Source of the DNA: Minisyncoccota bacterium
GTDB lineage: Bacteria; Patescibacteriota; Minisyncoccia; Phycocordibacterales; UBA1006
Reading direction: 5' to 3'
Assembly: GCA_021734445.1 (NCBI GenBank)
Contig: JAIPIY010000001.1
Location: 110,814 to 174,813, forward strand
Length of the DNA: 64,000 bases
Notes under the pieces: model-generated
The model's database searches: none
What the model saw: the letters and a program-made list of their open reading frames with translations, nothing else
What the model was told of the DNA's origin: nothing
Program-made: the position numbers and the translations under genes
Shown: piece after piece, positions 10,934-60,604 of the stretch
How the letters are laid out: every line of letters begins with the position of its first letter
How positions within the stretch are numbered: position 1 is the stretch's first letter

Positions 10934-10937
10934 ATTT

Positions 10938-11459: not shown

Positions 11460-11460
11460 A

Positions 11461-12021
11461 TTATTGTGGTTCAGCTAATATTGCTGATAAAGAAAACGTC
11501 ACATCGTTTCCCGCTACAAAATGTGATACTGGAACAACAACATCAAGAAACGCGGGGTGATTTTTTATCGTTTGTATAAAAAATAATAAATCTTCTCGAG
11601 TCTGTGCAATACCACGCATAAACACAGTACCAGGGTTATCTTCTGTTGATTGAACAATACGTATTTCTTGTAATGCAATTCCTGCTGATGCTTTTTCACC
11701 CAGAACTATAACAATATCTGAAATGGTCGGCTGTTGAAAAGTAACCAAAGCTTTTTTTGTTTTTGTATTCACATCACGGATTCTTTTTACAATATCGCGA
11801 TATTCTTGATTTTCATCTTGATCCAATAACGTTTGCAAAGAAGCTTCTGCAATAGAGTAATTAACCCGTGCATACATATATAATCCCGAAAAAAGAATCC
11901 CCGCACACAACAACAGCGCCATACCCATATACAACACAATCATAACCGAACGTTTTTTCATTTCTCGATCGATTTGTTTTTTGTATTCTGTTGTTAAAAT
12001 ATTAATAGTCATATATTTCAC
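11461..12021 (-). CDS. pilN: Type IV pilus assembly protein PilN-like.
   Basis: Single TM after a short cytoplasmic N-terminus, then a periplasmic coiled coil. Overlaps the pilM stop. Confidence 0.5.
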   Translation of the reverse strand: MKYMTINILTTEYKKQIDREMKKRSVMIVLYMGMALLLCAGILFSGLYMYARVNYSIAEASLQTLLDQDENQEYRDIVKRIRDVNTKTKKALVTFQQPTISDIVIVLGEKASAGIALQEIRIVQSTEDNPGTVFMRGIAQTREDLLFFIQTIKNHPAFLDVVVPVSHFVAGNDVTFSLSAILAEPQ

Positions 12022-13102
12022 CTAATGCCAAACCCAAAGCAGTGGCATATGATAACGATTCTTCTTGGGATAATGCTGGAATATCTTCATCAAAAGACAA
12101 AATATTTTTCCATACCGAAGCTACCGTAACGGGCATATGCATCGTCGATGATAAATATTCTGCAAATCCAGGTAATAACGATCCTCCTCCCACCAAATAC
12201 ATTCCATCAATAGTTCCAGAAACTCCTGGTAATTTACCATGGGCGGTATGCCAATATAGGTAGTGTTTATTTATTTCATCACGCAATGCACTAATATTAT
12301 TAATCACGGTAAAGAAATAATCTTGGTCATCCGTATTGTGTAATAATCCTCGTGATTGTTTTATGGTTTCTGCTTCTTCTTTTGAAATCTGAAAATATTT
12401 TGCGATGGCTTCGGTTAATGAATCAGATCCAATATCCAATGTCGATGTAAACACCGTAGCGCCAGAAACGATAATAGAAAAACCTGATCGATTCTTTCCA
12501 TAGTCAACCAAAATATACGTTCCTGCATCATGTCGAGGAACTGTAACCCGTGATAATGCATGCACCTCTAATTCCCCCACTAATGGACGCAATCCAGCTG
12601 ATAGAAAAGCACGCGTATAGGTTTCAATAATTTCTCGTGGAAATGCAGTAACGCTGATTAATAACGAATCCTCGTGTTCACGAAAAATTTCATATCCAAA
12701 AGAAATATCGGATTCTGGCAAAGGAACATGTTCTTCTATCTGCAAACGAATAGCTTCTTCTAAATGAGGTAAAGCTTTTTTAGGTAACATAATCGAAAAA
12801 ACATACGCATGTTCTTCAGGTAAAGAAAACCGAACCCAACTGGCTTTTGTTTTTTGTTGAATAGAACGCAATGCCGAAGTAAAAGCAGGAATATCATGAA
12901 CAACACCTGAAACAACAATATCTTTTTGGAGAGCATGTTCTCCATATTCTCCTAATTTCAGAGATGTATTTTTTCTTTTCAGGGTAGCAAAACGTAATGT
13001 GTCATCAGAAATATCAATAGACAATGCAGGCATACGTGCAAACGCAGGTGCAGGGAAAAGTTTTTGAATCACGTGAGAAAACTTCATAGATATAGTATAC
13101 AC
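12002..13102 (-). CDS. pilM: Type IV pilus assembly ATPase-fold protein PilM.
   Basis: 366 aa with an actin-like fold signature (LSIDISDDTLRFATLK ... MYLVGGGSLLPGFAEYL). Confidence 0.65.
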   Translation of the reverse strand: MYTISMKFSHVIQKLFPAPAFARMPALSIDISDDTLRFATLKRKNTSLKLGEYGEHALQKDIVVSGVVHDIPAFTSALRSIQQKTKASWVRFSLPEEHAYVFSIMLPKKALPHLEEAIRLQIEEHVPLPESDISFGYEIFREHEDSLLISVTAFPREIIETYTRAFLSAGLRPLVGELEVHALSRVTVPRHDAGTYILVDYGKNRSGFSIIVSGATVFTSTLDIGSDSLTEAIAKYFQISKEEAETIKQSRGLLHNTDDQDYFFTVINNISALRDEINKHYLYWHTAHGKLPGVSGTIDGMYLVGGGSLLPGFAEYLSSTMHMPVTVASVWKNILSFDEDIPALSQEESLSYATALGLALGEIYDY

Positions 13103-13120
13103 GAAATATCTCTCTTGGGT

Positions 13121-13699
13121 CTAGTTTTTTAAAACAAAATAAAGAATTACCATACACACAAATAATATAGTTATCATGCGCAGATGTTTTACATAATGCG
13201 ACAATACGATTCGCGCTCGATCTCCAAATAAAAATACAATATACGCTTCGATATAAAAACGTAATCCACGACCCAACACTGAACCCAAAATAAACGGTAT
13301 CAAAGGGACCTGAAAAAATCCGCCTAAAATGGTAAATAATTTAAACGGAATAGGGGTAAACGCTGTGATAAACATGGTGACAAAAGTAGCTGATGCAAAC
13401 AAATGTGCAATCGTTGTGATATAATTTTTTGTATCATAAAACTGCACCAATGATTCAGCAAAACCTTCAAAAAGAAAAAAACCCAACGCATAACCAGCCA
13501 GCCCGCCCAAGATAGAAGCAACAGTGGTAATACCTGCATATCGCCACCATGCGTGTTTATTAGCAAAAACCATAGGTATCAGTAATATATCAGCTGGAAT
13601 CGGGAAAAAGGAACTTTCTATAAAAGATACAATCGCCAAAACCCATACCGAAGTACGTGATACAAGCCAATTTTGTACTATATGCAACCACCGATTCAT
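13121..13699 (-). CDS. DedA/VTT-domain family membrane protein.
   Basis: FIESSFFPIPADILLIPM ... GRGLRFYIEAYIVFLFGDR are typical DedA motifs. Confidence 0.65.
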   Translation of the reverse strand: MNRWLHIVQNWLVSRTSVWVLAIVSFIESSFFPIPADILLIPMVFANKHAWWRYAGITTVASILGGLAGYALGFFLFEGFAESLVQFYDTKNYITTIAHLFASATFVTMFITAFTPIPFKLFTILGGFFQVPLIPFILGSVLGRGLRFYIEAYIVFLFGDRARIVLSHYVKHLRMITILFVCMVILYFVLKN

Positions 13700-13703
13700 A
13701 TAA

Positions 13704-14051
13704 TTATCGAACCACGGTACCGGGTGCCACAGATGTTTCTGGAACTAAAAATACTGGTTTTCCATCGATACCATCCACCGCCATCAACATACCATTACTG
13801 GTCACACCGCGAATATCACGTGGTTCCAGATTAGTTACATACAATAATTGTTTCCCAACCAATAGTTCATATTCGGGATAATATTCTCGAATTCCAGATA
13901 CAATCTGTCGCAAGACTGAATTCCCTTCGTCATCTTTTTCTCCAAAATCAATCTCACAACGCAATAACTTATCAGACCCCTCGACCGGTTCAACTAATTT
14001 CACAGTACCAATTTGCATGGTTAATTTTTTAAAATCATCGTAGGTAATCAT
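13704..14051 (-). CDS. tRNA-binding domain protein (CsaA/Trbp111/EMAP-like OB fold).
   Basis: LLVGKQLLYVTNLEPRDIRGVTSNGMLMAVDG. Confidence 0.6.
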   Translation of the reverse strand: MITYDDFKKLTMQIGTVKLVEPVEGSDKLLRCEIDFGEKDDEGNSVLRQIVSGIREYYPEYELLVGKQLLYVTNLEPRDIRGVTSNGMLMAVDGIDGKPVFLVPETSVAPGTVVR

Positions 14052-14076
14052 AGGGTTTATAGTAAAGGTTAATCTA

Positions 14077-14493
14077 TTATTTTTGTTTGTCTAAATATCT
14101 TTGTAACATAATCGCAGCTGCTAATGCATCGTCTTCGCCAGTTGGCTTTTTTGCACGACTACGTGACACATTTTTTTCTGGAACCAAAGACTGCAAAGCT
14201 GATCTGGTAGTAAAATCTTCACGTTGAGTATCAATAGGAATCTGCACCAAAAATGACATTTGCCCTATGAAATCTCGCACGTCATCCATAATCGCATTAT
14301 CGTTTCCTTTTGCATCTTTTGATTCTCCTATAATGATTTTTTCTACTCGTTCATCTGATACAATTTTTGCAATCACATGATGAATATCTGCTGTTGTTGG
14401 AATCACTTTGTAAGCAAAAGCCATAGAACCATCATCGTCTGACAATGCTAATCCTATTTTCTTTTTTCCATAATCAATTCCCAAATACCGCAT
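14077..14493 (-). CDS. ruvX: Holliday junction resolvase-like YqgF/RuvX.
   Basis: MRYLGIDYGKKKIGLALSDDDGSMAFAYKVI; 138 aa. Confidence 0.75.
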   Translation of the reverse strand: MRYLGIDYGKKKIGLALSDDDGSMAFAYKVIPTTADIHHVIAKIVSDERVEKIIIGESKDAKGNDNAIMDDVRDFIGQMSFLVQIPIDTQREDFTTRSALQSLVPEKNVSRSRAKKPTGEDDALAAAIMLQRYLDKQK

Positions 14494-32387: not shown

Positions 32388-32633
32388 GGTTTAGTGGTTT
32401 TTTATATCATTTTGAATCTCTCTTATTTTCTCTGTTTCAATTTTTTCTCGAAACAGCCGAAGGATGCTATTTTTTGCAATCAATAAATTTGAAAATTTTT
32501 GATAAAAGTCTTTTTTTGCAGACTGTATATACTCAATATCTTTTTCACCAGCGGGCAATTGCATATCGCTAGTATATCATTTTTCTTCTTTTTCCTCTAT
32601 GCATCTTGTGTGGCTATGGTATACTGTACACAT

Positions 32634-33116
32634 ATGGAAAAAGAGTCTCGCAAACCAACATTGCTTTCTTGGAAAACTTTGGAACATGTGCACCGACCGC
32701 GTACAAAAGACTGGTACTGGGGTCTAGGTCTGACAACAATCGCTGGGATTGTAATAGCTATCTTGATTGGAAATGCACTGATTGGAGTCATGATTGTTAT
32801 TATTGCATTTACGATATTATTGTATACATTTCATCCCCCTATTACATTGAATATTGCAGTAAACGAAGATGGAATTAAAATCAATAACAAAATGTATCCT
32901 TTTGAAAATGTTCATGCATATGATATCCATGATTACAAAGAAGAAACATCTTTGTTCATTGTTTTAAAAGAAGGTATTTCTCCTTTGATTATTATTCCTA
33001 TCAATAAAGATATTATTGCTCTGGATGATATTCATGAAATATTCCAGGAATTTATTCCCCAGGAACACATGCGGACACCCTTGATTCATCAAATCATGCA
33101 TTATTTGAATATCTAA
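32634..33116 (+). CDS. Small membrane protein, hypothetical.
   Basis: Start moved to the internal ATG (MEKESRKP); 2 TM segments. Confidence 0.4.
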   Translation: MEKESRKPTLLSWKTLEHVHRPRTKDWYWGLGLTTIAGIVIAILIGNALIGVMIVIIAFTILLYTFHPPITLNIAVNEDGIKINNKMYPFENVHAYDIHDYKEETSLFIVLKEGISPLIIIPINKDIIALDDIHEIFQEFIPQEHMRTPLIHQIMHYLNI

Positions 33117-37503: not shown

Positions 37504-38028
37504 ATGTACCCTGTATTTGATACCATTATGGGCTCAGGAATACTGGTATTAGGTATACTGTCCATAATTATATTAGTTCTCTATTTTGTTTCACCAAAAT
37601 ATGCAATCATTTTATGGATACAGAATAATATTTTGATTGTAGGATTTGTTATTGCGTTAGGTGGTGTAATGGGATCTCTTATCTATTCAGAGATTATTGG
37701 ATTCGAACCATGTCGCCTGTGTTGGTATCAAAGAGTTGCATTATTCCCTATTGCACTATTGTCTGGAATAGCAATCATCAAAAAACACTCGTGGATAACC
37801 CTGTATGGATTGGTATTGTCCATTATTGGCGGAATTATCGCCATATATCATATTATTCTAGAAAAAAATATATTTGGTGATGCGGTAAATCTACCCTGTG
37901 CAGCAGATGCGGTATCTTGTACTGTCCAATACGTCTATGTGTTTGATGGTCTGATTACCATCCCATCTATGTCTTTTGTCGTGTTCTTTGCCCTGTTTAC
38001 GGTATTCTTTATTGGTTCAAAAAAATAA
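37504..38028 (+). CDS. Disulfide bond formation protein B (DsbB/BdbC family).
   Basis: EPCRLCWYQR motif plus a second Cys pair (CAADAVSC); 4 TM segments. Confidence 0.7.
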   Translation: MYPVFDTIMGSGILVLGILSIIILVLYFVSPKYAIILWIQNNILIVGFVIALGGVMGSLIYSEIIGFEPCRLCWYQRVALFPIALLSGIAIIKKHSWITLYGLVLSIIGGIIAIYHIILEKNIFGDAVNLPCAADAVSCTVQYVYVFDGLITIPSMSFVVFFALFTVFFIGSKK

Positions 38029-38104: not shown

Positions 38105-38731
38105 TTAAACCGAAACAGTGAAAATATTATCCATGGTACGCATTACTTTCTGCGCATAATCAGGGACAATTGATGGTGGATTATACGTTTGCAAAATTTG
38201 AAACGTATCTTTGTCTTTATAATATCGAGAGGTAGAAGGAACATGACCACCTAAATGTTGAGAGATTCTGTCGATTGCTTCTTCATAACTTGAAAAAGAA
38301 ATCTTACATGACCCCCAGCCAAAAGCGGCATACGTTGCCTTTTTACAAGCGAACTTGCCTCCTGTAGATTCAATGAATCCAATAGAAGCCAATAGTCGCC
38401 AATCGATGCCAGAAGCGTCAGCAGCGCGTACAAAGTGAATTCCATATCCAGCCAAAGGAAGATTCCCTTTGCGGATAAAAAAGTCATCAATATATGCAGC
38501 CCGTTCTTCTTCTGTTAGACCATCTACAAGATGTAGATCCTCTGAACCATCTTTTCGTGTTTCGGACACTATGACCATTGCATCATCCGGCGCCAAAGCG
38601 GCAGTTGCATGCAACCCGATTCCCATAGCAAGGAAAAAGATTGCAACAACCAATACATAAGCCGGAGATACAAATCGTATATGCAATTGATAAGGCATAA
38701 CTAGCGATATGAGCTTCGCAAAACTATCCAT
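38105..38731 (-). CDS. Secreted hypothetical protein (possible cell-wall hydrolase-like).
   Basis: N-terminal TM/signal; motif WRLLASIGFIESTGG. Function not established. Confidence 0.35.
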   Translation of the reverse strand: MDSFAKLISLVMPYQLHIRFVSPAYVLVVAIFFLAMGIGLHATAALAPDDAMVIVSETRKDGSEDLHLVDGLTEEERAAYIDDFFIRKGNLPLAGYGIHFVRAADASGIDWRLLASIGFIESTGGKFACKKATYAAFGWGSCKISFSSYEEAIDRISQHLGGHVPSTSRYYKDKDTFQILQTYNPPSIVPDYAQKVMRTMDNIFTVSV

Positions 38732-38952
38732 ACAGGCAGCAGATATCTTTTTTTGAAATGGGTTTCTCTCTTTTGCACGTAGAGATACTTTTCATTCCAA
38801 TAAAAAAGACCTGCATTACAGGACTTCGGAACTGCTATAAGTGTAGCATATTGCAAGAGAAAAGTCAAGCTACTACAACATAATTAATATTATGTCAAAT
38901 CATCCTCTACCCTCAAAAAAGTCTTGTAAATAAAGGGTTTTTCTACAAAAAA

Positions 38953-38972
38953 AGACCCCGGTGAAGGGGCCT
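38953..38972. terminator. Hairpin plus T-run immediately after the rplE stop (end of the ribosomal operon in this locus).
   Basis: AGACCCCGG tgaa GGGGCCT with flanking A/T runs. Confidence 0.5.
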
Positions 38973-38978
38973 TTTTTA

Positions 38979-39557
38979 TTATTTTTTCTTTTTAACAACT
39001 TTCTTTTTCTTTTCGTCTTCTTTTTTAAATGGAACACCTAGGTATTCAAAATATGCCATAGCTTCGGCTCGATTTTTTGCAGTAGTTCCCACAGTAATTG
39101 ATAGACCAAATACATCTTTGATTTCTTCGTCAGGGGTTTCTGGGAAGATAGTGTGTTCGCGAATACCCAATGTCATGTTTCCGATTTCGTCCACGCTTGA
39201 TCGATTTACTCCACGAAAGTCTTTTGTCCGAGGTAATGCAATATGTACTAATTTATCAAAAAAAGATTTCATTCGTGCTCCACGCAAGGTAACCATAACA
39301 CCAACAGGATCTCCCGTACGAATTTTAAATGTCGCAATAGATTTTTTTGCACCACGAATAGAACCTTTTTGACCAGTGATTTTTCCTAATCTATCAACAA
39401 CCAACTGATTGCGATTTTTGTCAGATTTCATACCACGACCTGTACCCACAGACACAACAATCTTTGTTACGTGTGGTACTTGTAATGCATTTTTATACCC
39501 AAATTTTTCTTTTAGGACAGCGAATGCGTTTTTTTGTTTTTGTGTTAATGATTCCAT
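38979..39557 (-). CDS. rplE: 50S ribosomal protein L5 with a Lys-rich C-terminal tail.
   Basis: Classic L5 sequence; ends KKEDEKKKKVVKKKK. Confidence 0.9.
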   Translation of the reverse strand: MESLTQKQKNAFAVLKEKFGYKNALQVPHVTKIVVSVGTGRGMKSDKNRNQLVVDRLGKITGQKGSIRGAKKSIATFKIRTGDPVGVMVTLRGARMKSFFDKLVHIALPRTKDFRGVNRSSVDEIGNMTLGIREHTIFPETPDEEIKDVFGLSITVGTTAKNRAEAMAYFEYLGVPFKKEDEKKKKVVKKKK

Positions 39558-42314: not shown

Positions 42315-42659
42315 CTATTTCTTTTTAGAATCCCCACTTGATTTTGCTGCTTTTGCTGCTGCGATATCTGATTCACGTTTCTTTTGTTCAAGTTCTTTTT
42401 GCATTTTACCTCCGTGTCGTACGAATACTTTTGAAGGTGCAAATTCTCCTAATCGGTGACCAATCATATCTTCTTCTACAAGAACTTCGATATGTTTTTT
42501 ACCGTTATGAACACCAAAAGTAAATCCAACCATTTCCGGAGAAATCATTGAACTACGTGCCCAAGTTTTAACAACCCCTGTTTCTAAGGGTTTTTTTCCT
42601 TCTATTTTTGATAGAAGTTTTGCATCAATATATGGTCCTTTTTTTAAGCTTCGTGACAT
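42315..42659 (-). CDS. rpsS: 30S ribosomal protein S19 with a Lys-rich C-terminal tail.
   Basis: [12 protein letters not shown] ... [10 protein letters not shown]. Start at the internal ATG (42657-42659 confirmed). Confidence 0.85.
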
Positions 42660-42772
42660 AATGTGTATCAAAATAAAGCAAGCTCTGTATGAGCTCGCAT
42701 GTGCATAGTATCAGACTGAAAGAAAATGTCAACAGATAACCTCTGGAAAACCAAAATAGACCACAGGAATAT

Positions 42773-45700
42773 CTATTCATCAATACTGTTATTAGATTCT
42801 GCACCACTATCCTGATCTGCATCACCGGATTCCGAAGAAGAATCTGATTCGGTATTCTGTTCAGGTGATGATTCTGTTGGCGCATCATCTTGCGTCGACT
42901 GGTCTTCTGATGGGAATTCGTCAATAGTTGCATCATTAGTGTCTCCATCAGCTTCTTCTTCAATAATTAGTTCAGATTCAGAAGAATCGTTATTCTCTTC
43001 TTCTCCTTCGTCATCAGGCAACTCATCAATAATTAGTTCATCTGTATCGCCAGAATCATTTTGATTATTATTATTTGATGTATAGATAACCTGTTTTGTA
43101 GATCCATTCATCACTGATTCTAATTCGTCCCCTGTTACGCAAAAATCAGTTCCATCAGATTTTGCAACACAAATTTCTTCTGTATAAATTTCTTTTGCAA
43201 AGAATTTTTGTATCCCATTCCCCGCATCAGCAAACCAATTTCGTATACGTGAAAGAAGTGTTTCATCTGAAAGAGTTTGAATATCCATGAGTTTCAAATC
43301 CATTTCTTTAATTGCTTGTGTAATAACTGCAGTCATCTGAGCATAGTACACTGCTTTGTATCCATCTTCTCTTTCAATTACTAATTCAGGGAAATATTGT
43401 TCTAAATCTTGAGCAATGAACCCGATACGAGTTTTATTTGATTGATCACTGTTGAGAGTATATGAAACTGTTCTTACATTCAAAAGTTTAGAAAGAACAC
43501 CTGAAGATAGGTCGTTAACATTTGATTTTAATTGTTCGTCAGATGCAATAGAAGCAGAATCATACCAAGCTAAAACACCTGAACCATTTGTACCTAACAC
43601 ATAATCCATAGCACCATCTGTTGTTGGCCAATACCAATTTGTAGTACTTGATCCATCATTGTTTGTTAATATCAAACCACTCTCTTGCGCCCTAATACCA
43701 GCAGAACTATTGAGTGAAGGATCTGACCAACTTAATTGTGCATAATTACTAGCAGTAACAATAGCAGAATCTGTATTTGCACCAGCATAACTCATTGATG
43801 CAAAACCACTGTACACACCAATATTCGAAGAAAGACCACCGGGTTCGTCATATCTTAATATGGAACCACTTGAGTCTAAGAGTAACCGCCGAATATCTCC
43901 GCCTCCAAAATCAACAATACCAGAAATTGTATCATTTAAATTATTAACACTAAAACGAGTATCATCTCCAGTATAAAAAATACTATCATCATTATTCCAT
44001 GTGAAAGAATTACTTTGTGCGAGTACTCCGCCATCACCTACAAATAAAATGCTATTTGCATTAGCACTCCCAATTGTATCACCAATAGAGAGAGACCCTC
44101 CTCCACCCGGCACCCAAGTCATTATTCCTTCATCAGTAGAAGAAAGGAAATATCCACTTGCTACTGGATATGCAGTTGGCAATGTATATGTATCTCCTTG
44201 GAATTTCCATTTTGTAATTACATCAGGAATTGCAAATTCGTTTGAAACCGCTATTGCACCTGCACCAAGAGCAATTGCGTCTGAAGCAAACCATTCACCT
44301 ATGTCTGCACCTGCTCCTATTATTGTATTACCAGAACCAGAAACAAGACCAGCTCCTGCCGAATATCCATATGCAGTATTCGAACTTCCAATAGTATTAT
44401 TATATCCAGAATTATAACCAGTAAACACGTTATTAGAGCCTTCTGTATTAAAGAAACCAGCAGAAGGGCCAGAAAAGATATTATTAGAACCTTCTGTGTT
44501 TGCATAGCCAGAATGAGATCCAGAGAAGATGTTACTAGAACCAGTGGTATTTGCATTACCGGCGTTAATACCAGAAAAAATGTTCTCTGTACCTGTAGTG
44601 TTTGAATAACCCGCGTTAGTACCTAAAAAGATGTTATTAGCACTAGATGTATTTGAATGCCCAGCATTATATCCTATAAATATATTATAGTCTCCCCCGG
44701 CATTACTGTATCCCGCTTCGTAACCTTGAAAAATATTGTGACTACCTGTTGTATTCGCAGTTCCTGTATAATTTCCCAAAAAAATATTATGTACTCCCGT
44801 ATCATTTAATACCCCTGCGCCAGTTCCTACAAAAAAGTTACCGACTCCGGTCATAGTCTCATTACCAGATCGATTGTCGAATAAGTTCGTACCGAGAAGT
44901 GTAAATAAACTACCCCCACCTCCCGCTGGAGTTTCCCATGTCAAATTTCCAGAACCATCATTCGTCAGAACTTCTCCTGCACCACCCTGAGCATCTGGCA
45001 TGATCCAGTTGACACCTCGCATATTGAACTGAGTATAAGCTGGTCCAATTAAAAATTGATTTGATGCAGTATTGGTTGCTTGATATCCTAAACCGATACT
45101 GTTCGAATATCCTCCGGTTGAAGTATCATCACCAATTAATATTGAAGTGCCGATACTAGTATTATCAACAGAATCATTCAGCCCTGCATTTTCACCAATA
45201 AAAATACTATTGGCAGCATTTACTGCAGAATTACCTGCATCATATCCAATGAAAATTGACCGAAATGCAGAATACGCGGAATTACCCGCATTATATCCAA
45301 TGAAATTTGACAAATGAGCCCCTTCGGCATATTGGCCTGAACCAGCTCCTAGAAAATTAGAACCATACGCATTTTCTGCCTGATATCCTGCATATTGCCC
45401 GAGGAAGTTTGAACTTGAAGCATTCGTTGCACTGTTCCCTGCATAGACACCTAAAAAGTTTGAGTTGTTTGCGTTAGTTGCATTTTGACCAGATTGTTGT
45501 CCAAAGAAATTGGAATAAGTAGCATCAGTTGCGCCAAGACCAGCAGACCTACCAAAGAAGTTTGAGAATGACGCATTTGTTGCATCACGACCTGTTTGAT
45601 ATCCCAAAAAAACTGAATCTTGTGCGTCAGAATTTAATCCTGCTTCTAATTCTCCACCTGAAAACAAACCAAATATATTAACAAGTGAAATTGCAGATGA

Positions 45701-46741
45701 TCCTCCACCAGAAACTGCCTCCCAAGTTAAATTCCCTGAACCATCATTAGTTAAAACTGTATTAGATCCACCTTGAGTATCTGTCCAATCATAGCTCACA
45801 CCATTAATATAATGTAAATTACCAACTCCAAGATTACCTGGAACACCAACAACTCCTAATGGGTATTGACCGTAAGAGCCTAAGACAGAAAAAAGTGGAC
45901 TATCTCCATTTCCAGAATCAAGAATATTAAAAGCACTAGCATTACTTGCCCAGAAATTCATTTGCCCTCCCGAGTTAATCTGAAACAAATTACCTCCGCT
46001 AGAATTTTGTATCAATAATGGATCTACATCTTCATATGTATCAGACGTTCCTGGAACTTCTGGTGTCCCTTCGGCAAATGTTAACATATAGAAATTATCT
46101 TCGGGTTGTCCTCCAGCATCTATAACAATAGGTGAGTGTCCTGTACCGCTTGCAAAGGTAACAAAGATACCAGAAAAATCAAGATCGACGAGAGGCATGG
46201 GAACACCCGGAGTAATTTCTATCACATCATCAGGAATATCTAATCCACCACAGTTTCCTCCATAGGCAATACGATCATTAGCAAACCCATTATCTGGTGC
46301 TGTATCCCAAATACCGAAAATTAACATACAACCTTCTGGTCCATCGTATTCTCCTGAGAATGTCGCGTCTTGAAGCCCCGCACCAGTATAGTCGACACTG
46401 GCAACAGAACCTGGTGTGCCCGGAATCGTAGGAGTCCCCGGTACAAGAACCTGACCTGTTTGAATGTGTAATTGCGCCAATGGGGAATCTATACCAATAC
46501 CAACCAACCCTTCATCAAAAAATATATCAGTATCATTTGATGCAAAAGACCAAAGAGAACCACCGTCACCAATATCAATAATACAATCTGGATCAGCTGG
46601 TCCTGTACATAAATTATCTCCTACGGGATCTAAAGTTTCTCCTGGTGTAATAGCTGAAACAACAATACCTCCGTAGAGAGTAAGAGCAATGAGAAGAAAG
46701 AAAAAAATGGCGTGTTTTTTTAATGTTGTGAGTAGTTGCAT
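42773..46741 (-). CDS. Giant secreted repeat protein, paralog 1 (~1320 aa). Signal peptide; Cys-containing N-terminal motif AITPGETLDP; two blocks of 17-residue Gly/Asn-rich tandem repeats; C-terminal peptidase S74 intramolecular-chaperone autoprocessing domain; polyacidic tail.
   Basis: S74 signature ASDEQLKSNV ... IGFIAQDLEQYFPELV ... AVYYAQMTAV encoded near 43300-43546. Repeats such as SNFLGVYAGNSATNASS x7 and NNIFLGTNAGYSNTTGT x9. Start set at MQLLTTLKK (46741); the alternative ATG is at 46759. Confidence 0.8.
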   Translation of the reverse strand: MQLLTTLKKHAIFFFLLIALTLYGGIVVSAITPGETLDPVGDNLCTGPADPDCIIDIGDGGSLWSFASNDTDIFFDEGLVGIGIDSPLAQLHIQTGQVLVPGTPTIPGTPGSVASVDYTGAGLQDATFSGEYDGPEGCMLIFGIWDTAPDNGFANDRIAYGGNCGGLDIPDDVIEITPGVPMPLVDLDFSGIFVTFASGTGHSPIVIDAGGQPEDNFYMLTFAEGTPEVPGTSDTYEDVDPLLIQNSSGGNLFQINSGGQMNFWASNASAFNILDSGNGDSPLFSVLGSYGQYPLGVVGVPGNLGVGNLHYINGVSYDWTDTQGGSNTVLTNDGSGNLTWEAVSGGGSSAISLVNIFGLFSGGELEAGLNSDAQDSVFLGYQTGRDATNASFSNFFGRSAGLGATDATYSNFFGQQSGQNATNANNSNFLGVYAGNSATNASSSNFLGQYAGYQAENAYGSNFLGAGSGQYAEGAHLSNFIGYNAGNSAYSAFRSIFIGYDAGNSAVNAANSIFIGENAGLNDSVDNTSIGTSILIGDDTSTGGYSNSIGLGYQATNTASNQFLIGPAYTQFNMRGVNWIMPDAQGGAGEVLTNDGSGNLTWETPAGGGGSLFTLLGTNLFDNRSGNETMTGVGNFFVGTGAGVLNDTGVHNIFLGNYTGTANTTGSHNIFQGYEAGYSNAGGDYNIFIGYNAGHSNTSSANNIFLGTNAGYSNTTGTENIFSGINAGNANTTGSSNIFSGSHSGYANTEGSNNIFSGPSAGFFNTEGSNNVFTGYNSGYNNTIGSSNTAYGYSAGAGLVSGSGNTIIGAGADIGEWFASDAIALGAGAIAVSNEFAIPDVITKWKFQGDTYTLPTAYPVASGYFLSSTDEGIMTWVPGGGGSLSIGDTIGSANANSILFVGDGGVLAQSNSFTWNNDDSIFYTGDDTRFSVNNLNDTISGIVDFGGGDIRRLLLDSSGSILRYDEPGGLSSNIGVYSGFASMSYAGANTDSAIVTASNYAQLSWSDPSLNSSAGIRAQESGLILTNNDGSSTTNWYWPTTDGAMDYVLGTNGSGVLAWYDSASIASDEQLKSNVNDLSSGVLSKLLNVRTVSYTLNSDQSNKTRIGFIAQDLEQYFPELVIEREDGYKAVYYAQMTAVITQAIKEMDLKLMDIQTLSDETLLSRIRNWFADAGNGIQKFFAKEIYTEEICVAKSDGTDFCVTGDELESVMNGSTKQVIYTSNNNNQNDSGDTDELIIDELPDDEGEEENNDSSESELIIEEEADGDTNDATIDEFPSEDQSTQDDAPTESSPEQNTESDSSSESGDADQDSGAESNNSIDE
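44290..44820 (-). repeat. Coding tandem repeat: 51-bp units encoding the 17-aa xNIFxGxxAGxxNTxGS repeats (about 9 units).
   Basis: Periodicity read from the translation. Coordinates are approximate. Confidence 0.6.
45150..45600 (-). repeat. Coding tandem repeat: 51-bp units encoding the 17-aa xSNFxGxxAGxxATNAx repeats (about 7 units).
   Basis: Verified by back-translating 45160-45300 to IGYNAGNSAYSAFRSIFIGYDAGNSAVNAANSIFIGENAG. Confidence 0.6.
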
Positions 46742-46767
46742 ATGGTTGTAGTATAGCATGTTACTAT

Positions 46768-46801
46768 AAAAAGAAAATCCCCTATAGGGGATTTTCTTTT
46801 T
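46768..46801. terminator. Perfect hairpin AAAAAGAAAATCCCC tata GGGGATTTTCTTTTT between the rplB stop and the giant gene 1 start.
   Basis: 15-bp stem. It ends 9 nt before ATG 46759. Confidence 0.6.
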
Positions 46802-46805
46802 ATAT

Positions 46806-54369: not shown

Positions 54370-56787
54370 TTATTCAATACTGTCCGATTGCTCTTCTGGT
54401 GTTTCAACTGTTTCTTCTGGATCTTCGGATTCAATTTCATCTACTATTTCAGATTGTTCAACCTCATCTTCTGATTCTAAAACTTCTAGGATTTCAATTG
54501 TTGATTCTTCTTCGATCAGAGGAATATCTTCATCTGATATAGATTCTTCGTCTACAACAACATTTTCATCATTAATTATCACATCTCCTTCTTCCAAATC
54601 ATCAGAATCAGTAATAACACCTGTATGAATTAATCGTTTTAACATTTCAGCTTCTTCTTTGTCAAAACACACATTCTCTACACACAACTCTTCGGTCGTA
54701 ATCTTCTTTGCAAAGATGTTTTGAATACCGTTACCTACGTCAGCAAGGAAATCTTTAGCTAAAGTAGTTAATAATGCTAATGAAAATCCACCAGATGCAA
54801 TGGTTTGAGATTCTAAGATGGAAACCTTGAGATCTAACTCTCTAACCGCCTCTACTAATATTGGAGCCATTTGTGCATAATACACGGATTTAAATCCTTC
54901 TTCATTGGTTGCAACCAGCTCTGGGAAATATTGTTCAAGATTTTGAGCAAGAAAACCAATTTGCGGATGTGTTTCGGGTTTGTCATTCCAGTTATAGGTA
55001 ACGGTACGGAGCTGAAGAACTTTATCAAGTATGTTTGACATATCTACAATATTTGTTTTTAATCTTTCGTCAGATGAACATGCAATACCAGTGCCTGTAG
55101 TAATAATACAGTTAGTAGTAGCTGCTTGAATACGTACAGATTCAATTGAACCTGTAGCCAGGGTTGAACCAATCATGAATTGATTTGTAGCAGTGTTGGT
55201 TGCCCCTTTACCAATGGCAATGGAGTTAGAAAATCCTCCAGTAGAGGTTTCATCTCCAATGAGAATAGATGTGAAGTTTGCTGTTGAATTATTTAGTGCA
55301 AGATCTCCTGCTTGAGATCCCGCACTATTTCCAATGAAAATTGAGTTATTTGAATTAGCAGAACCAGCAACACCCACACTAAAAAAACCTGCTTTGGAAC
55401 CAATAAAAGTTGAGTTATAAGCATTAGTCGCACCTTGACCAGCTGAATTACCAAAGAAATTAGAATGCGCAGCATTAGTTGCGCTATTTCCAGCTGTGCG
55501 ACCCAAAAAATTAGAATTACTAGCATTGGTTGCACTATCACCTGCTGAGGCACCAAGGAAGTTTGAACCATTCGCGTTTGAAGCGTTTATACCTGCATTT
55601 GCACCGAAGAAGTTTGAAGAAGAAGCACTTGTTGCACTAGCTCCAGCACCAACTCCAAAGAAGTTTGATTGATATGCGTTTGTTGCATCTTGTCCTGCAC
55701 CATTACCTAGGAAGTTTGACTCAGTAGCATCTACTGCATTTTGACCAGCACCACCTCCCAAGAAGTTTACTGAGTAAACATTTGTTGCACCATTACCAGC
55801 ATTATCTCCTAAGATTATATTTCCACCACCACCTATTGTTCTTCCTTGCCCTGTACCAGAAAGTCCTGATGAATATAGAGTGTCTCCAGATGCACCAATC
55901 GTAATTGATGAAGACCCCCCAGAAACAGTAGCCCAAGAAAGTTGACCATTGCCATCTGTTTGTAATACCTGACCAAGAGCTCCATCAGCTATAGGAAAAG
56001 TATACCAATCTCCACTGAAATCAAAAGTAATACCACTATCATCCAAAGATATACTTTGGGCTCCCGTAATAGTATCTACATATAATTGTGCATATTCACT
56101 GGAAAGAGATAATTCTGATCTATCATTAGCGCCTGTATCTTCATATCTAAAAGAAGCCTCTGTTGCATCAAGTTCCATTGTTGATTCTTTATTGATTACC
56201 AGGTCAGAAAATTGAGATGCAAAACTTGTATCAGTGACATTAAATCCTGTTCGGATATTTCCTCCATCACTCAAAAGAAAGAGTGAAGCTCTTTGAGGAG
56301 CAAATAACATTGTAGAGCTTTCACCACTAGCACCTCCATAACCTACAATTGTCACATGCTCACCAAGACCAAATGCCGTCCCATCACCAACCGCAACAAA
56401 ATTTGATTCGTCAGTAGTCTCATCAACATGAACCATATTAGCACCAGGAATTGTACCATTTGCACTAATTCCCATAATAGTTAAAAAATCAGGAGCCACA
56501 CTATCAGACACCATCATAATTTCACCATTATCAAAATCATAAGTAAAACCTTCAGCAGTTGAAAGTTCACCTGCATTATTTAAAAATAAAACACTATTTG
56601 GATCTAATCCATCATACGGATTAATAGCACATCCAGAATCAGTTGGTCCAGAACACACATTGTTGTGTGTATTTACCGGATCCAATGTTTCCCCTGGCGC
56701 AATAGCAAACACAGCAAATGCAGTAAATGCGATAGAAGAGATGAGTGCACCCAGTATAGACACCTTGTAGTGTGTAGTATAAGACAT
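54370..56787 (-). CDS. Giant secreted repeat protein, paralog 2 (~805 aa). Signal peptide; AIAPGETLDP/CSGPTDSGC N-terminal motif; 17-aa xSNFxGxxAGxxATNAx repeats; peptidase S74 intramolecular-chaperone domain (CSSDERLKTNI); polyacidic tail.
   Basis: S74 signature SSDERLKTNIVDMSNILDKVLQLRTVTYNW ... IGFLAQNLEQYFPELV ... SVYYAQMAP encoded around 55053-55080. Start set at MSYTTHYK (56787); the alternative ATG is at 56805. Confidence 0.8.
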   Translation of the reverse strand: MSYTTHYKVSILGALISSIAFTAFAVFAIAPGETLDPVNTHNNVCSGPTDSGCAINPYDGLDPNSVLFLNNAGELSTAEGFTYDFDNGEIMMVSDSVAPDFLTIMGISANGTIPGANMVHVDETTDESNFVAVGDGTAFGLGEHVTIVGYGGASGESSTMLFAPQRASLFLLSDGGNIRTGFNVTDTSFASQFSDLVINKESTMELDATEASFRYEDTGANDRSELSLSSEYAQLYVDTITGAQSISLDDSGITFDFSGDWYTFPIADGALGQVLQTDGNGQLSWATVSGGSSSITIGASGDTLYSSGLSGTGQGRTIGGGGNIILGDNAGNGATNVYSVNFLGGGAGQNAVDATESNFLGNGAGQDATNAYQSNFFGVGAGASATSASSSNFFGANAGINASNANGSNFLGASAGDSATNASNSNFLGRTAGNSATNAAHSNFFGNSAGQGATNAYNSTFIGSKAGFFSVGVAGSANSNNSIFIGNSAGSQAGDLALNNSTANFTSILIGDETSTGGFSNSIAIGKGATNTATNQFMIGSTLATGSIESVRIQAATTNCIITTGTGIACSSDERLKTNIVDMSNILDKVLQLRTVTYNWNDKPETHPQIGFLAQNLEQYFPELVATNEEGFKSVYYAQMAPILVEAVRELDLKVSILESQTIASGGFSLALLTTLAKDFLADVGNGIQNIFAKKITTEELCVENVCFDKEEAEMLKRLIHTGVITDSDDLEEGDVIINDENVVVDEESISDEDIPLIEEESTIEILEVLESEDEVEQSEIVDEIESEDPEETVETPEEQSDSIE
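55370..55800 (-). repeat. Coding tandem repeat: 51-bp units encoding the 17-aa SNF/GAG/ATNA repeats (about 8 units).
   Basis: Back-translation of 55381-55440 gives GQGATNAYNSTFIGSKAGFF. Confidence 0.6.
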
Positions 56788-56816
56788 ATGAGAATAGTAT
56801 AGCATGATATCCAAAT

Positions 56817-57922: not shown

Positions 57923-59914
57923 TTAAGAGACCGTGAAATTCTGATTAATCACACCCTTTGTGGCTTTGAATGGTTGCGAAGTATACACATGTGCATAGGT
58001 ACCATCAGCGTTTTTGCGTTCAATTGTTACATAGTATTCACCCTTTTGCACCAAACAGTAATATTTTCCATCAGCATCGGAAACTTTGTGAGCGACTTCT
58101 TTTTGCAATCGTGCATTAAAGATACGCATAATCGCAAAAGACAAAGGATACCCTGCGCTGTCGGTCAAAATACCATGTGGTTTTGGATGTAATCCAACGA
58201 TATACAAGAACAACATAACAATATACAAACCAACGATAATACCATTAAATATTGACTGAGAAGAAAAGAATGCCAACAACGAAGTAACGAAACCAACTAC
58301 ATACAAAATATTAATAACCCGAATCAACAAAGCATCATGTTTTTTAAAGAAGTTAGCTACCTTCATTTCTTTTTTCGCCTGTTCGTTCCAATCGACCCCT
58401 TCGGCGTCCATAGGAATATTTTTTGTAATCACCTGTCCTTGCTCTGTTACGGAAATTGGTTCACCAAAATAAAGATTTGGATATAATTCATCAGTGGTTC
58501 GCCCTGATAATTTTAATGAAGGAAATGTATAATGAGTTTTCCCTACGGTAATAGTATACAAACCTGGCGCCACAGGAAATCCAAAACGACCATCAAGATC
58601 AGTAATAGAGCTGGCTACTTCTTTACCTGATGCATCCAACAACGAAACGTATGCAGGATCCAACGGTTGTTTTGTTGCAGAATCAAATACCACACCCCAC
58701 GGTTTGTATCTTCGACGAATTCCCAAGAATGACAATAGAATATTCCAAATTCGCAGGAAAGAAGGAATCATTCCCGCCAATCCCGAAGCCAAAGCAACAG
58801 TAGATATCAATTGCAATGTATTCATTGGAGTCTCTTGTGCAAAATATTTTTTCACATTTTGAACTGTTTCATTTGCTAGGAAAGAATCAATCATATCTGA
58901 CGCACCAGAAAAAATTTCAGACGTAGGGGCATCTGTCCCCGGCGTTCCTGTTGGGCCCGTTGGCGTATCAGGTGGTGATGGCGGTAGAGGAGGTTCTTCA
59001 GGTGGCAATGGGGGTTCTTCTGGCGGCAATGGAGTTACCGGTAAAATACAATCCCCATTCTCATCTACAACAAGATTATTGGGAATGGATGTTTGATTTC
59101 CTGAAATATTAGGGCACATATCAGTGCTGTCAGCGATACACTGACCACCATCCATTGAATATCCTATAGGGACAGATGCTTGTATTCCTGATAGATTTGG
59201 ACAAACATCAGTAGTATCAGCAACACAATTTCCTAAATTATCATAAGAAAATCCTGTTGGCATACTGGATTGTGCCCCGACAATATTGGGGCAAACATCA
59301 ATTAAAATACATGCACTACCCACCAACATATATCCAGATGGTACAGATGATTGATTACCATCAATATTCAAACATACATCAGGTGTAGGTGGAGGAACAA
59401 AAACACCCCCACCACCTGGTGTACTGCCGCCATCATCTGTACATTGAAAATCAGTAACCACACATGCAGATCCTGGACAAGAAAATTCTAACCAACCATT
59501 TGAACCAGACCATGCGTATCCATCAAATTCTCCGTCATCGTTCATGGTTACACCGCCACCCTGTGGTGAAAAGTTTACCCAACCAATTTGACTTCCCCAT
59601 GCGTACCCAGACAATGCACCAGTATCACCTGTACATTGCAAAACAACCCCTGTGCTAGTCGGGTCAAGATTAATCCATCCAGCAACATCACCCCATGCAT
59701 ATCCATTAAATTCCCCTGTAGTGTCATCGATATCGACATTGCCACCTGTTGGATTGAAATTTACCGAACCTTGTTCAGATTCTGTAAATTCAGCACAAGA
59801 ATCATTGGTAGAACAGTTTGTACTGGTACCAATGGTTGCTGCATACACCGTTACAGAAACAAAGCTGACAAGTACGATTAAAAAGCGCAATGATATTTTT
59901 TTTAGTATAAACAT
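57923..59914 (-). CDS. Multi-domain cell-surface protein with internal repeats (3 x GYAW ... GW ~35-aa repeats; 4 x DVCPNIxGxQSSxP ~28-aa Cys repeats), a PLPPEEP proline-rich linker, TM segments and a C-terminal CarboxypepD_reg-like beta-sandwich.
   Basis: Repeats read in the translation; [28 protein letters not shown] motif. Confidence 0.5.
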
Positions 59915-59923
59915 ATGAAATTA

Positions 59924-60604
59924 TTATAACACAAGAAATGACAAAGGAATAAGATTCCCAGCAATAAGTGTGTATAAAAATACTACGACCGGCAAAAGAA
60001 GATCCCATAAAAAGAAAACAAAGAAAATCAGCATGAACATCCAGTATTTTTCAAAAAATATTCGGACCGCATTCCAATGTCTTGGAAACAATGCAAACAT
60101 AATATGGTGTCCGTCCAACGGTGGTATCGGAACCAAATTAAATACAGCCAGAACCGTATTTACAATAATAATAATTCCTGCAATTTTTAGTTCTGGAGAA
60201 ACAAAAATCTCTCCAGTCATCGAAACGGAAACAGGATCTACAATCCCGATTGCGATACCAGCATGAGCAATTAATGAAACAAAAATAGCAATTAAAATGT
60301 TAGAAACCGGCCCAGCCAATGCAACCAATGCAGGTCCATATTTTTTATTATCCAATTGATGCAAATTAAAAGGGACTGGTTTTGCCCAACCAATCAGAAA
60401 ACCAGCCTTGGTAACCACTAGTAACAAGGGAATAATAATAGAACCCCAAAGATCCAAATGTTTTATAGGGTTCAACGTCAAACGTCCCGCCATACGTGGA
60501 GTTGGGTCACCCATTGCTTCGGCTGCGTATCCATGAGACAGTTCGTGTAAAATTACTGAAAATAATAATATGAGAATGTAAAAAATGATATCAATTCCTG
60601 CCAT
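59924..60604 (-). CDS. Site-2 protease-type zinc metalloprotease (peptidase M50 family).
   Basis: ILHELSHGYAAEA HExxH plus NLVPIPPLDGHH LDG motif; 226 aa, polytopic. Confidence 0.75.
   Translation of the reverse strand: MAGIDIIFYILILLFSVILHELSHGYAAEAMGDPTPRMAGRLTLNPIKHLDLWGSIIIPLLLVVTKAGFLIGWAKPVPFNLHQLDNKKYGPALVALAGPVSNILIAIFVSLIAHAGIAIGIVDPVSVSMTGEIFVSPELKIAGIIIIVNTVLAVFNLVPIPPLDGHHIMFALFPRHWNAVRIFFEKYWMFMLIFFVFFLWDLLLPVVVFLYTLIAGNLIPLSFLVL

Follow-up and report, generated by a model that had tools for sequence, protein, structure and literature searches.

A phage-tail-fibre-like gene with a predicted export signal between the ribosomal protein L2 and S19 genes of a Patescibacteria bacterium

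Gene and flanking genes

The window, a stretch of 64,000 nucleotides from a Minisyncoccota bacterium (genome of 37% G+C), carries between rplB and rpsS a single uninterrupted open reading frame of 3969 nt on the minus strand (42773..46741, stop codon within these coordinates), here called the fibre gene. Its product of 1322 amino acids, read from the ATG at 46741, is exactly NCBI protein MCF7831430.1, already deposited there under the name 'tail fiber domain-containing protein'. The start was set at this ATG because the NCBI product begins there and a conserved TGnTATACT-N8-ATG motif is found directly 5′. Position 46801, the upper coordinate given beforehand, was rejected as the gene start, since it has no start codon and falls within a hairpin.

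The upstream neighbour is rplB (ribosomal protein L2; 46806..47642, minus strand; Pfam Ribosomal_L2_N and Ribosomal_L2_C, E from 1e-34 to 1e-50) and the downstream neighbour is rpsS (ribosomal protein S19; 42315..42659, minus strand; Pfam Ribosomal_S19, E 4e-31), the true start of which is MSRSLKKG. The wider surroundings, both in the window and in the relative L001, are tuf, rpsJ to rplB and rpsS to rplE. A gene in this place had been claimed in the original prediction, and the order rplB-fibre-rpsS was recovered in three independent assemblies, i.e., that of the window and those of its relatives GCA_964489785.1 (L001) and Logan SRR26424594 (L083), whose flanking proteins are 97.5–98.5% (L2) and 95.6–96.6% (S19) identical to those of the window. 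The placement is as unusual as had been supposed, the L2–S19 gap having a median of 16 nt and a maximum of 286 nt in 61 other bacteria. All the sequence motifs quoted beforehand were also found (AITPGETLDP...CTGPADPDC; SDEQLK, GFIAQDLEQYFPELV and YYAQM; GNGIQKFFAKEIYTEEICV; the N-terminal hydrophobic segment). The gene and its placement are therefore confirmed as real.

Transcription signals

Directly 3′ of the rplB stop codon, a terminator scan located a perfect 18-bp palindromic hairpin, AAAAAGAAAATCCCC-TATA-GGGGATTTTCTTTTT (46765..46804), which resembles an intrinsic terminator and would act in both directions. Its RNA fold has a minimum free energy of −25.2 kcal/mol and a centroid energy of −23.6 kcal/mol (z −6.3), and none of 200 shuffled sequences folded as well. 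An equivalent hairpin is kept in L001, in L083 and 5′ of a paralogous fibre gene of the window. The hairpin of the fibre gene is followed on the minus strand by an extended −10 promoter-like element, TGcTATACT (46758..46750), and an 8-nt spacer up to the ATG (46742..46758 in all), with no Shine-Dalgarno sequence at the gene start, a layout of the leaderless type. The pattern TGNTATAMT-N8-ATG occurs four times in the window, where 0.22 occurrences would be expected; all four stand at gene starts, and the pattern is invariant across four aligned upstream regions. On the other side, scanning within 42678..42732 (minus strand) revealed ahead of rpsS a promoter-like TTGACA-16-TACTAT with TG (42732..42705) and, 3′ of it, a hairpin GCGAGCTC-ATACA-GAGCTTGC with a U-tract (42698..42678). 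The entire 115-nt spacer 5′ of rpsS is 98% identical in the three assemblies.

These signals do not bear out the proposal that the fibre gene is very highly expressed as part of the most transcribed operon of the cell. Genes co-transcribed in the S10 operon would have neither terminator nor promoter between neighbours, and predicted signals of these kinds occur on both sides of the fibre gene. It seems reasonable to interpret it as an insulated unit, with putative terminator, extended −10 promoter and start codon of its own, outside the S10 operon transcript. Read-through of the hairpin could still couple its expression to the operon.

The L2–S19 junction in related genomes

In Paceibacteria relatives the L2–S19 gap measures 180–4264 nt, versus the median of 16 nt in the 61 other bacteria, and the remaining junctions of the S10 operon stay tight, except S10–L3 in three loci. 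A terminator hairpin is found 3′ of rplB in 13 of 16 of these relatives. The cargo of the gap varies from genome to genome and includes DAGK-like ORFs, toxin-antitoxin-like pairs and other ORFs. By these signs, the junction in related Paceibacteria is a putatively terminator-bounded hotspot with differing cargo. Compared to the canonical S10 operon (rpsJ-rplC-rplD-rplW-rplB-rpsS-rplV-rpsC-rplP...), gene order and tight spacing are the same at all the other junctions, the differences being the terminator-like hairpin after rplB, the promoter-like site before rpsS and the variable cargo in the clade. Throughout the clade, transcription of the operon would thus stop after rplB and resume before rpsS, and this would be the reason why the gap exists. 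Other members of the fibre family sit in unrelated genomic contexts, so the ribosomal location of the fibre gene may be without functional meaning.

N-terminal part of the protein

Residues 1–30 (46652..46741, minus strand) have the appearance of a signal peptide of the Sec type or of a signal anchor (KKH, a hydrophobic core of 20 residues, VSA|I). They were judged by hydropathy, as the sole hydrophobic segment of the protein (maximum of 2.39 at residue 13 in a Kyte-Doolittle window of 19 residues), and cleavage was predicted from the −3/−1 rule. Residues 31–53 (46583..46651, minus strand) hold a conserved motif, ITPGETLDP...C-x7-C, with a Cys45/Cys53 loop; the pattern PGxTLDP...C...C recurs in about 45 of 120 homologues and in the paralog. 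The N-terminal domain proper (residues 54–310; 45812..46582, minus strand) contains a second Cys pair, 138/164, and gave no Pfam match at E ≤ 1, related segments being present in P0003, P0024 and P0034. The six Cys of the protein form three close pairs. A DsbB gene, named by its match to a DsbB-family gene of L001, lies near the fibre gene (37504..38028), and in L001 a thioredoxin/DsbA-like gene lies beyond DsbB. Altogether, export of the fibre protein via Sec is predicted. Concerning cell anchoring, neither sequence inspection nor the Pfam matches pointed to a sortase signal, a lipobox, a C-terminal transmembrane segment or an S-layer homology domain.

Connectors, repeat blocks and distal domain

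A pattern search yielded four copies of a connector motif, Y-x-W...VLTNDGSGNLTW...GGG, the first one at residues 312–347 (45701..45808, minus strand) and the others at 44912-45022, 44096-44203 and 43556-43642. The same motif borders modules in homologues. Between connectors lie two repeat blocks, both on the minus strand: block A (residues 375–561; 45059..45619), with nine units x-S-N-F-x-G-x-x-A-G-x-x-A-T-N-A-x plus two degenerate capping units and a third degenerate unit after it (residues 562–578), and block B (residues 634–837; 44231..44842), with nine units x-N-I-F-x-G-x-x-A-G-x-x-N-T-x-G-S and three degenerate ones. The phased 17-residue repeats described earlier are evident from the self-identity of the protein (0.376 at lag 17 and 0.336 at lag 34, versus about 0.05–0.12 elsewhere), and each block keeps a perfect register. 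The suggestion of a beta-helical fibre agrees with the model of the block tested, A, which was predicted as a beta-solenoid. Block B and the chaperone domain described below have matches among the tailspike and tail-fibre families of PHROG; those to residues 599–831 are with tail spike and virion structural proteins (E from 1e-10 to 7e-13).

Directly before the chaperone, the distal domain (residues 881–1036; 43634..44101, minus strand) has no Pfam match and is, by its position like that of the receptor-binding tip of phage fibres, a candidate ligand-binding tip. Residues 987–1065 share 35% identity with a stretch that precedes the repeat block in the paralog.

Chaperone domain, post-S74 module and acidic tail

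The expected Peptidase_S74 intramolecular chaperone domain was found at residues 1067–1155 (43277..43543, minus strand; Pfam PF13884, 54.4 bits against a cut-off of 22, E 1.5e-14, profile positions 1–57 of 58). Profile comparison matched it to tail-fibre chaperone domains of the PDB (8jov, 1.4e-12; 6f45, 7.6e-10; 3gud, 2.7e-4) and also to 7dc3, the best sequence-profile matches being the phage fibres S16 gp37 (6f45), T5 pb1 (8hqz) and the putative tail fibre 8jov. In the AF2 model, pLDDT exceeds 90 over residues 1067–1156, and Foldseek matched the model to the MyRF, GA-1 and endosialidase chaperones (7dc3, top, E 2.9e-4, probability 1.00; 3gud; 3gw6). In the stretch S1067-D-E-Q-L-K1072, the Ser, Asp1068 and the Lys are invariant in 39 sequences (alignment A1). 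This is the S-D-x-x-x-K arrangement of the Ser-Lys dyad, Ser911/Lys916 in endoNF; the predicted scissile and catalytic Ser1067 is encoded at 43541-43543 and Lys1072 at 43526-43528 (minus strand). To our knowledge, in every characterised S74 domain three chains meet at the chaperone and self-cleavage depends on trimerisation; by family analogy, the fibre would trimerise and cleave itself likewise.

The phage K1F endosialidase and GA-1 neck appendage (3gw6, 3gud) share with the fibre the Pfam family, the fold, the S-D-x-x-x-K motif and the position of S74 directly after a beta-helical body. The fibre differs from them in being cell-encoded, in starting with a putative signal peptide and in having about 165 residues after S74, which is thus not the extreme C-terminus of the precursor. 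We consider this a variant architecture and no ground for exclusion from the domain family. The ICA domain of MyRF (7dc3), a eukaryotic membrane-bound transcription factor, is likewise a cellular, non-viral use of S74 for the trimerisation-dependent self-cleavage presumed here by analogy, although it frees a DNA-binding domain inside the cell while the fibre is predicted to be exported, and context and function are unrelated.

The conserved segment noted after S74 proved to be a widespread module (residues 1156–1213; W-F-x-x-x-x-N-G-I...C-x9-C; 43103..43276, minus strand; alignments A1 and A3), matched by 2693 cluster representatives. The best 150 matches include 88 new representatives with a length of 400 residues or more, of which 84 also contain S74. 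The module has no Pfam family, and its Cys1191 and Cys1201 are invariant. It is predicted to form a helix followed by a beta-hairpin and a helix (AF2 pLDDT of about 83 for hairpin and second helix). It was present in five of five cellular loci tested and in none of 80 viral S74 loci, and, at 85–90% nucleotide identity, no other part of the orthologous alleles is as well conserved. The polyacidic tail of some 100 residues described earlier is indeed there (residues 1216–1322, ending ...SIDE; 42776..43096, minus strand), the last 98 residues containing 38 Asp plus Glu and no Lys or Arg; it is predicted to be disordered, with pLDDT below 50 for the part within the model (residues 1215–1237).

Alleles and paralogs

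The alleles at the rplB-rpsS locus (the window's 1322-aa fibre, or BIG, P0001 and P0012) are 34–42% identical, versus 90–98% for the flanks, the flanking DNA by itself being 90–93% identical, and the middle of the protein is almost wholly different between close relatives. Those of the two relatives are intact and encode 1362 and 1087 residues. The window also contains, between rpsG and fusA, a paralogous fibre gene of 805 aa (54370..56787, minus strand; identical to NCBI protein P0096), preceded by the same hairpin and promoter-like element as the fibre gene. Over their first 180 nt, the alleles of L001 and L083 share 81–86% identity with this paralog, versus 67–72% with the orthologous gene, and this shows that 5′-end modules are exchanged between paralogous loci. 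The family is very large, with at least three paralogs per genome. Recombination, from strain to strain as well as from one paralogous locus to another, would exchange the fibre body, and this suggests a surface protein subject to diversifying selection; the allele pattern is as would be expected of a surface recognition protein.

Discussion

The account that we favour, and regard as probable, is that of a cell-made, Sec-exported, trimeric and self-processing surface fibre, encoded by an insulated unit under diversifying selection and serving most likely to recognise a partner cell or surface and to attach to it. Along such a fibre, a signal peptide and a disulfide-loop motif would be followed by shuffled modules split by the connector motif, two of them beta-solenoid blocks of 17 residues per coil, then by the distal domain and S74. 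Three chains would be joined at the chaperone, which by analogy would template folding toward the N-terminus. Ser1067, activated by Lys1072, would then cut the chain, freeing a fragment of about 256 residues with the chaperone, the Cys-hairpin module and the acidic tail, and leaving the distal domain exposed as the fibre tip. Attachment to a partner would be a plausible role. It counts against this interpretation that none of the anchoring devices named above was seen and that, if S74 cleaves, the best-conserved post-S74 module would be thrown away.

The fibre could instead be a structural or protective coat element (e.g., a spacer fibre, a spike associated with an S-layer, or a decoy for phages); phage or predator pressure, and not partner recognition, would then lie behind its variability. 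Hypervariable alleles in a conserved locus are equally expected of a phage receptor or decoy, and the number of paralogs and the size of the family fit as well. We nevertheless consider this unlikely, given that, in all characterised cases known to us (endoNF, T5 pb1, S16 gp37), a distal domain under a removable chaperone belongs to a receptor-binding fibre. Attachment fibre and coat element are told apart by analogy alone. Less likely still is a tailspike-like depolymerase, whose beta-solenoid would bind and cut a polysaccharide of a partner capsule, a cell wall or the environment. The coils are strictly regular and their register has no gaps, the model of block A lacks long loops for a catalytic groove, identity to enzymes is 6–12%, with non-enzymatic adhesins and antifreeze proteins matching equally well, and nowhere does the protein match a family of glycosidases or lyases.

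The phage homologues of S74 and block B, the NCBI name and the unrelated cargo of the gap in other genomes might suggest a decaying or selfish tail-fibre remnant without cellular function in a permissive intergenic gap. This we hold to be very improbable. At a genomic G+C of 37%, the 3969-nt frame remains uninterrupted, as do both other alleles and the paralog; promoter-like and terminator-like elements are conserved; the post-S74 module is specific to the family; and no virion or other phage genes lie near the fibre gene in the window, nor virion genes near it in L001. Like the long or L-shaped, S74-capped tail fibres of phages, the protein has a mosaic body whose receptor-side part is swapped from strain to strain. 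Unlike them, it is encoded between rplB and rpsS, carries the module missing from the 80 viral loci and has, in place of a virion-docking N-terminus without export signal, a signal-like segment by hydropathy and paired Cys, features that phage fibres, as far as we know, do not have. An assembly chimera caused by the repeats of the gene is effectively refuted because three independent assemblies from different sources (two NCBI MAGs and one assembly of a Logan run) show the same placement with continuous ORFs and both junctions are conserved (hairpin-promoter layout upstream, 98% identical spacer downstream), even though such genes do break assemblies, as one relative's contig starts within the paralogous fibre gene and L003 stops right after rplB.

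Concerning known cellular adhesins, two homologues are named by JGI as trimeric autotransporter adhesins (YadA/UspA1/CbpF heads). In the fibre the C-terminus consists of S74 and the acidic tail, no match at E ≤ 0.1 was obtained to a YadA-type C-terminal beta-barrel anchor or to any Pfam domain of that class, and trimerisation is predicted from S74 instead. Read as a surface fibre, as far as its sequence indicates, the gene would mean that a small-genome Patescibacteria bacterium maintains a secreted, phage-tail-fibre-like protein as a unit of its own between the L2 and S19 genes.

Placement and start of the fibre gene

The minus-strand gene order in the window is tuf, rpsJ, rplC, rplD, rplW, rplB, a long ORF, rpsS, rplV, rpsC, rplP, rpmC, rpsQ, rplN, rplX and rplE, and the identities of L2 and S19 on either side of the long ORF were confirmed with Pfam. 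This ORF, the fibre gene, ends at 42773 (minus strand), and its reading frame remains open upstream into rplB. The ATG at 46741 was taken as the true start because the resulting 1322-residue product (42773..46741) is identical to NCBI protein MCF7831430.1 and because the layout TGnTATACT-N8-ATG is common to homologous genes. The upper coordinate 46801 of the original prediction lies inside a hairpin and offers no start codon. MCF7831430.1, from a contig of 252,050 nt, is named 'tail fiber domain-containing protein [Candidatus Pacebacteria bacterium]'; the gene is thus already annotated, by domain name. The G+C content of the fibre gene is that of its flanks.

The same order, with the fibre gene between rplB and rpsS, was found in three independent assemblies: the window, GCA_964489785.1, which holds the nearest homologue (P0001), and the Logan assembly of SRR26424594, which holds P0012. 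The proposed check of rplB-rpsS synteny in related genomes thus found the gene in both close relatives, and the agreement of the three assemblies led us to reject an assembly chimera. A prophage remnant was also rejected, since no phage genes adjoin the locus, the alleles are intact and a cell-specific module is present. The run of ribosomal genes ends after rplE (window 38105-38979 and downstream), where a 208-residue, weakly glucosaminidase-like protein and DsbB follow; the remainder of the spc operon is not contiguous after rplE, either in the window or at the GCA_964489785.1 locus.

Predicted transcription signals

A perfect 18-bp hairpin (46765-46804) with A- and T-runs on its sides comes right after the rplB stop codon (MFE -25.2 kcal/mol, centroid -23.6 kcal/mol, z -6.3). 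Six bases past it stands TGcTATACT, followed by 8 nt and the fibre ATG, with no Shine-Dalgarno sequence, and an alignment of four upstream regions shows this hairpin-promoter-ATG layout to be conserved. A scan of the window for TGNTATAMT-N8-ATG gave four sites versus 0.22 expected, each at a gene start and without a Shine-Dalgarno sequence, at 46739-46758, 56785-56804 and 59912-59931 on the minus strand and at 32617-32636 on the plus strand. The pattern suggests leaderless mRNAs begun at extended -10 promoters. The genes occupying the L2-S19 gap in two other relatives (L002 and L005) have a similar promoter layout, with a spacer of 6 nt.

Concerning the downstream side, the 115-nt spacer between the fibre gene and rpsS (window 42660-42775) is 98% identical in the three assemblies, versus 90–93% for the flanks. 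It contains TTGACA-16-TACTAT and then a hairpin with a U-tract (42698-42678), which would form the extreme 5′ end of any transcript begun at that site. This hairpin could serve two purposes: ending fibre gene transcripts, and stabilising or attenuating rpsS from the 5′ side. Given the hairpin and own promoter upstream, and the promoter-like site and hairpin downstream, the fibre gene has the look of a unit insulated from its neighbours, and the operon appears to restart with rpsS. The activity of all these elements is inferred. The earlier argument that a position inside the operon implies very high expression is undercut by the predicted terminator after rplB and the predicted promoter of the fibre gene itself.

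The L2-S19 junction in other genomes

In 61 genomes of other groups the L2-S19 gap had a median of 16 nt and a maximum of 286 nt; in 12 Paceibacteria-type relatives it ranged from 180 to 4264 nt, while the other S10-operon junctions of those 12 were tight, except for S10-L3 in three loci. The L2-S19 junction was also tight in three other Patescibacteria (labelled Saccharibacteria or Uhrbacteria). A strong hairpin with an A-run, a GC stem and a T-run follows rplB in 13 of 16 relatives. The cargo of the expanded loci (L004-L016, L002, L008 and L009, with gaps of 180-4055 nt) includes DAGK (L002, with a similar ORF in L005), MazE/MazF-like and other toxin-antitoxin-like ORF pairs, small ORFs, and a 1007-residue protein beside an ORF that is transposase-like by eye; these labels were read from the ORFs, not from family searches, except for DAGK in L002, which was assigned with Pfam. 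The more distant relatives examined had no S74 gene closer to rplB than 10 kb. The unusual placement of the fibre gene is best explained by a lineage-specific operon termination after rplB, which made the junction a safe landing site.

Domains of the fibre protein

The N-terminal features described in the original prediction were recovered: the protein has one hydrophobic segment, at its N-terminus, followed by ITPGETLDP...C-x7-C. Its six cysteines form three close pairs. The 17-residue repeats were likewise found, in two blocks (A, residues 375-561; B, residues 634-837) of perfect 17-residue register, and residue identity was 0.376 at lag 17 and 0.336 at lag 34, versus about 0.05–0.12 at other lags. 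Tandem Repeats Finder returned only a 51-nt, 2.7-copy trace from the gene, because the repeats are kept at the protein level and not at the DNA level. The AlphaFold2 model of block A with its cap and connector had a mean pLDDT of 80.8 (88–98 within the repeats) and a single short strand per 17 residues, so that block A is predicted to be a solenoid, in line with the beta-helical fibre originally suggested. A Foldseek search with this model gave no matches. Block B was matched by PHROG tailspike and virion-protein families, and the S74 domain by PHROG tail-fibre families. Four copies of a connector motif, Y/W-x-x-P...VLTNDGSGNLTW...GGG, lie between the modules, and the same connectors bound the modules of homologues. 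The N-terminal and distal domains had no family match in Pfam, and NCBIfam has no model for the fibre protein or its 805-residue paralog.

The assignment of the S74 intramolecular chaperone domain is well supported. The Pfam check gave Peptidase_S74 at 54.4 bits against a cut-off of 22. Ser1067, Asp1068 and Lys1072 are invariant in a C-terminal alignment of 39 family members, and this S-D-x-x-x-K has the catalytic dyad arrangement of characterised S74 domains. The profile built from that alignment matched, in the PDB, the putative tail fibre 8jov (1.4e-12), the S16 long tail fibre gp37 (6f45, 7.6e-10) and the GA-1 neck appendage chaperone (3gud, 2.7e-4), with MyRF (7dc3, E 0.031) and T5 pb1 (8hqz, E 0.65) below significance, every match being limited to the chaperone part. 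Such an alignment profile was needed, since a single-sequence phmmer search of the PDB with the whole protein yielded chance matches only. Finally, residues 1067-1156 were modelled by AlphaFold2 with pLDDT above 90, the best structural matches being the MyRF ICA, 3gud and 3gw6.

The conserved segment reported after S74 was located at residues 1156-1213 (W-F-x-x-x-x-N-G-I ... C-x9-C, both cysteines invariant). Its AlphaFold2 model shows a helix, then a beta-hairpin and a helix, these last two with pLDDT of about 83. It corresponds to no Pfam family. In a search of 1.84 billion proteins, its profile matched 2693 cluster representatives, 1087 of them at E ≤ 1e-10. The module was near the C-terminus in all 150 of the best matches listed, among which 84 of the 88 new representatives of at least 400 residues also contained S74. 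In the 80 best viral S74 loci of IMG/VR (1.0 Mb) it was undetectable, and no match reached past the chaperone; five of five cellular loci used as controls contained it. The module marks an S74 fibre branch that is cellular and largely Patescibacterial. The polyacidic tail also proved real, with 98 residues, 38 of them Asp or Glu, and no Lys or Arg. Among proteins with the module (P0124-P0259 and homologues), the last residue is Glu in 36% and the last two are Thr-Glu in 17%, in each case preceded by a low-complexity tail that is acidic or rich in Pro; these ends may be a C-terminal recognition signal.

Paralogs and exchange of modules

An 805-residue paralog (54370..56787, minus strand), identical to NCBI protein P0096, lies between rpsG and fusA and shares with the fibre the N-terminal motif, the repeats, S74, the post-S74 module and the acidic tail. 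It interrupts the str operon in the same manner as the fibre gene interrupts rplB-rpsS. The hairpin and TGcTATACT-N8-ATG recur upstream of it, and fusA is preceded by a TTGCAA-17-TATAGT site. GCA_964489785.1 shares this arrangement; its sequence starts within an orthologue of the paralog, directly upstream of fusA. The NCBI contig also encodes a third paralog, P0026, beyond the limits of the window. A family member is found between fusA and tuf in L002, a more distant relative. At that locus (8001-14126), tuf and fusA are broken into fragments and the ORF of this fibre (P0004) reads through, in frame, into the part of tuf that encodes the N-terminal GTPase domain; the joining is probably a product of frameshift-rich assembly and not a real fusion. 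That the family is always in ribosomal operons was rejected, since P0003 and P0008 lie elsewhere and the more distant relatives lack an S74 gene near rplB. P0003 (locus L084) directly follows a Peptidase_M50 gene; in the window, a Peptidase_M50-like gene (59924-60604) adjoins one for a 663-residue protein (57923-59914, minus strand) with a signal peptide, repeated CPN(I/L)xGxQ(S/T)x(V/I)P units, a linker rich in Pro and membrane segments at the C-terminus.

Across the three rplB-fibre-rpsS loci, L2 is 97.5–98.5% and S19 95.6–96.6% identical, and the DNA flanking the GCA_964489785.1 locus is 90–93% identical to the window. The three fibre alleles (1322, 1362 and 1087 residues) share only 34–42% protein identity, with modules rearranged. 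Between the window and GCA_964489785.1 alleles, nucleotide identity is about 50% upstream of S74 and through most of it, 85–90% over the post-S74 module, and lower again in the tail. A body this variable between near-identical genomes is characteristic of proteins that act in recognition or are exposed at the surface. The 5′ ends of the other two alleles are 81–86% identical to the rpsG-fusA paralog of the window versus 67–72% to the orthologous gene, which indicates that modules move between paralogous loci. The idea that the N-terminal 60 residues are conserved at the DNA level between orthologous alleles was rejected, because identity is only 72% and the paralog is closer. Recombination breakpoints are predicted to cluster at the PGETLDP...C motif, the connector motifs and GFIAQDLEQYFPELV.

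Possible function and significance

By analogy with the S74 family, cleavage and trimerisation would be expected of the fibre. Three exported chains would join through the S74 chaperone and, once associated there, fold towards the N-terminus; Ser1067/Lys1072 would then cut off roughly 256 C-terminal residues and leave the distal domain exposed. Orthologous alleles are best conserved in the piece that is predicted to be lost in this way. The paired cysteines suit an extracytoplasmic fibre, as do the DsbB gene (37504..38028, identified by its match to the GCA_964489785.1 locus) and the thioredoxin/DsbA-like gene beyond DsbB in that relative. No cell-anchoring device was found on inspection of the fibre sequence or among its Pfam matches. 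Attachment to a partner cell seems the most economical reading for such an organism.

Within the searchable literature, nothing that links Patescibacteria or CPR to S74, tail fibres or intramolecular chaperones deals with this family. The fibre is S74-capped, cell-encoded and signal-bearing; a C-terminal module specific to its family extends it, and ribosomal-operon junctions carry its gene as a recombining cassette. A bolder proposal, speculative and rather unlikely to be right, is that the partner-recognition organelle of Paceibacteria-type episymbionts is a phage-derived, self-processing, exported receptor-binding fibre, its specificity reset by cassette exchange between paralogous loci at terminator-bounded ribosomal-operon junctions, and that the post-S74 Cys-hairpin module with the acidic tail is an unrecognised device for S74-templated trimer assembly outside the cytoplasm.

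The clade-specific break after rplB, in an otherwise near-universal S10 operon, provides a landing pad for accessory genes and has to be allowed for when these genomes are annotated by operon or mined for phylogenomic markers. Little is known of what determines attachment and host range in Patescibacteria, an abundant and mostly uncultured group thought to rely on partner cells. The fibre family offers an easily recognised attachment candidate (signal peptide, solenoid modules, S74 and a family-specific C-terminal module in 2693 protein clusters) that bears the evolutionary signature of a recognition protein, and it makes testable the self-cleavage of an exported, cell-encoded S74 fibre, the binding specificity of its variable tip and the turnover of its alleles in relation to partner range.
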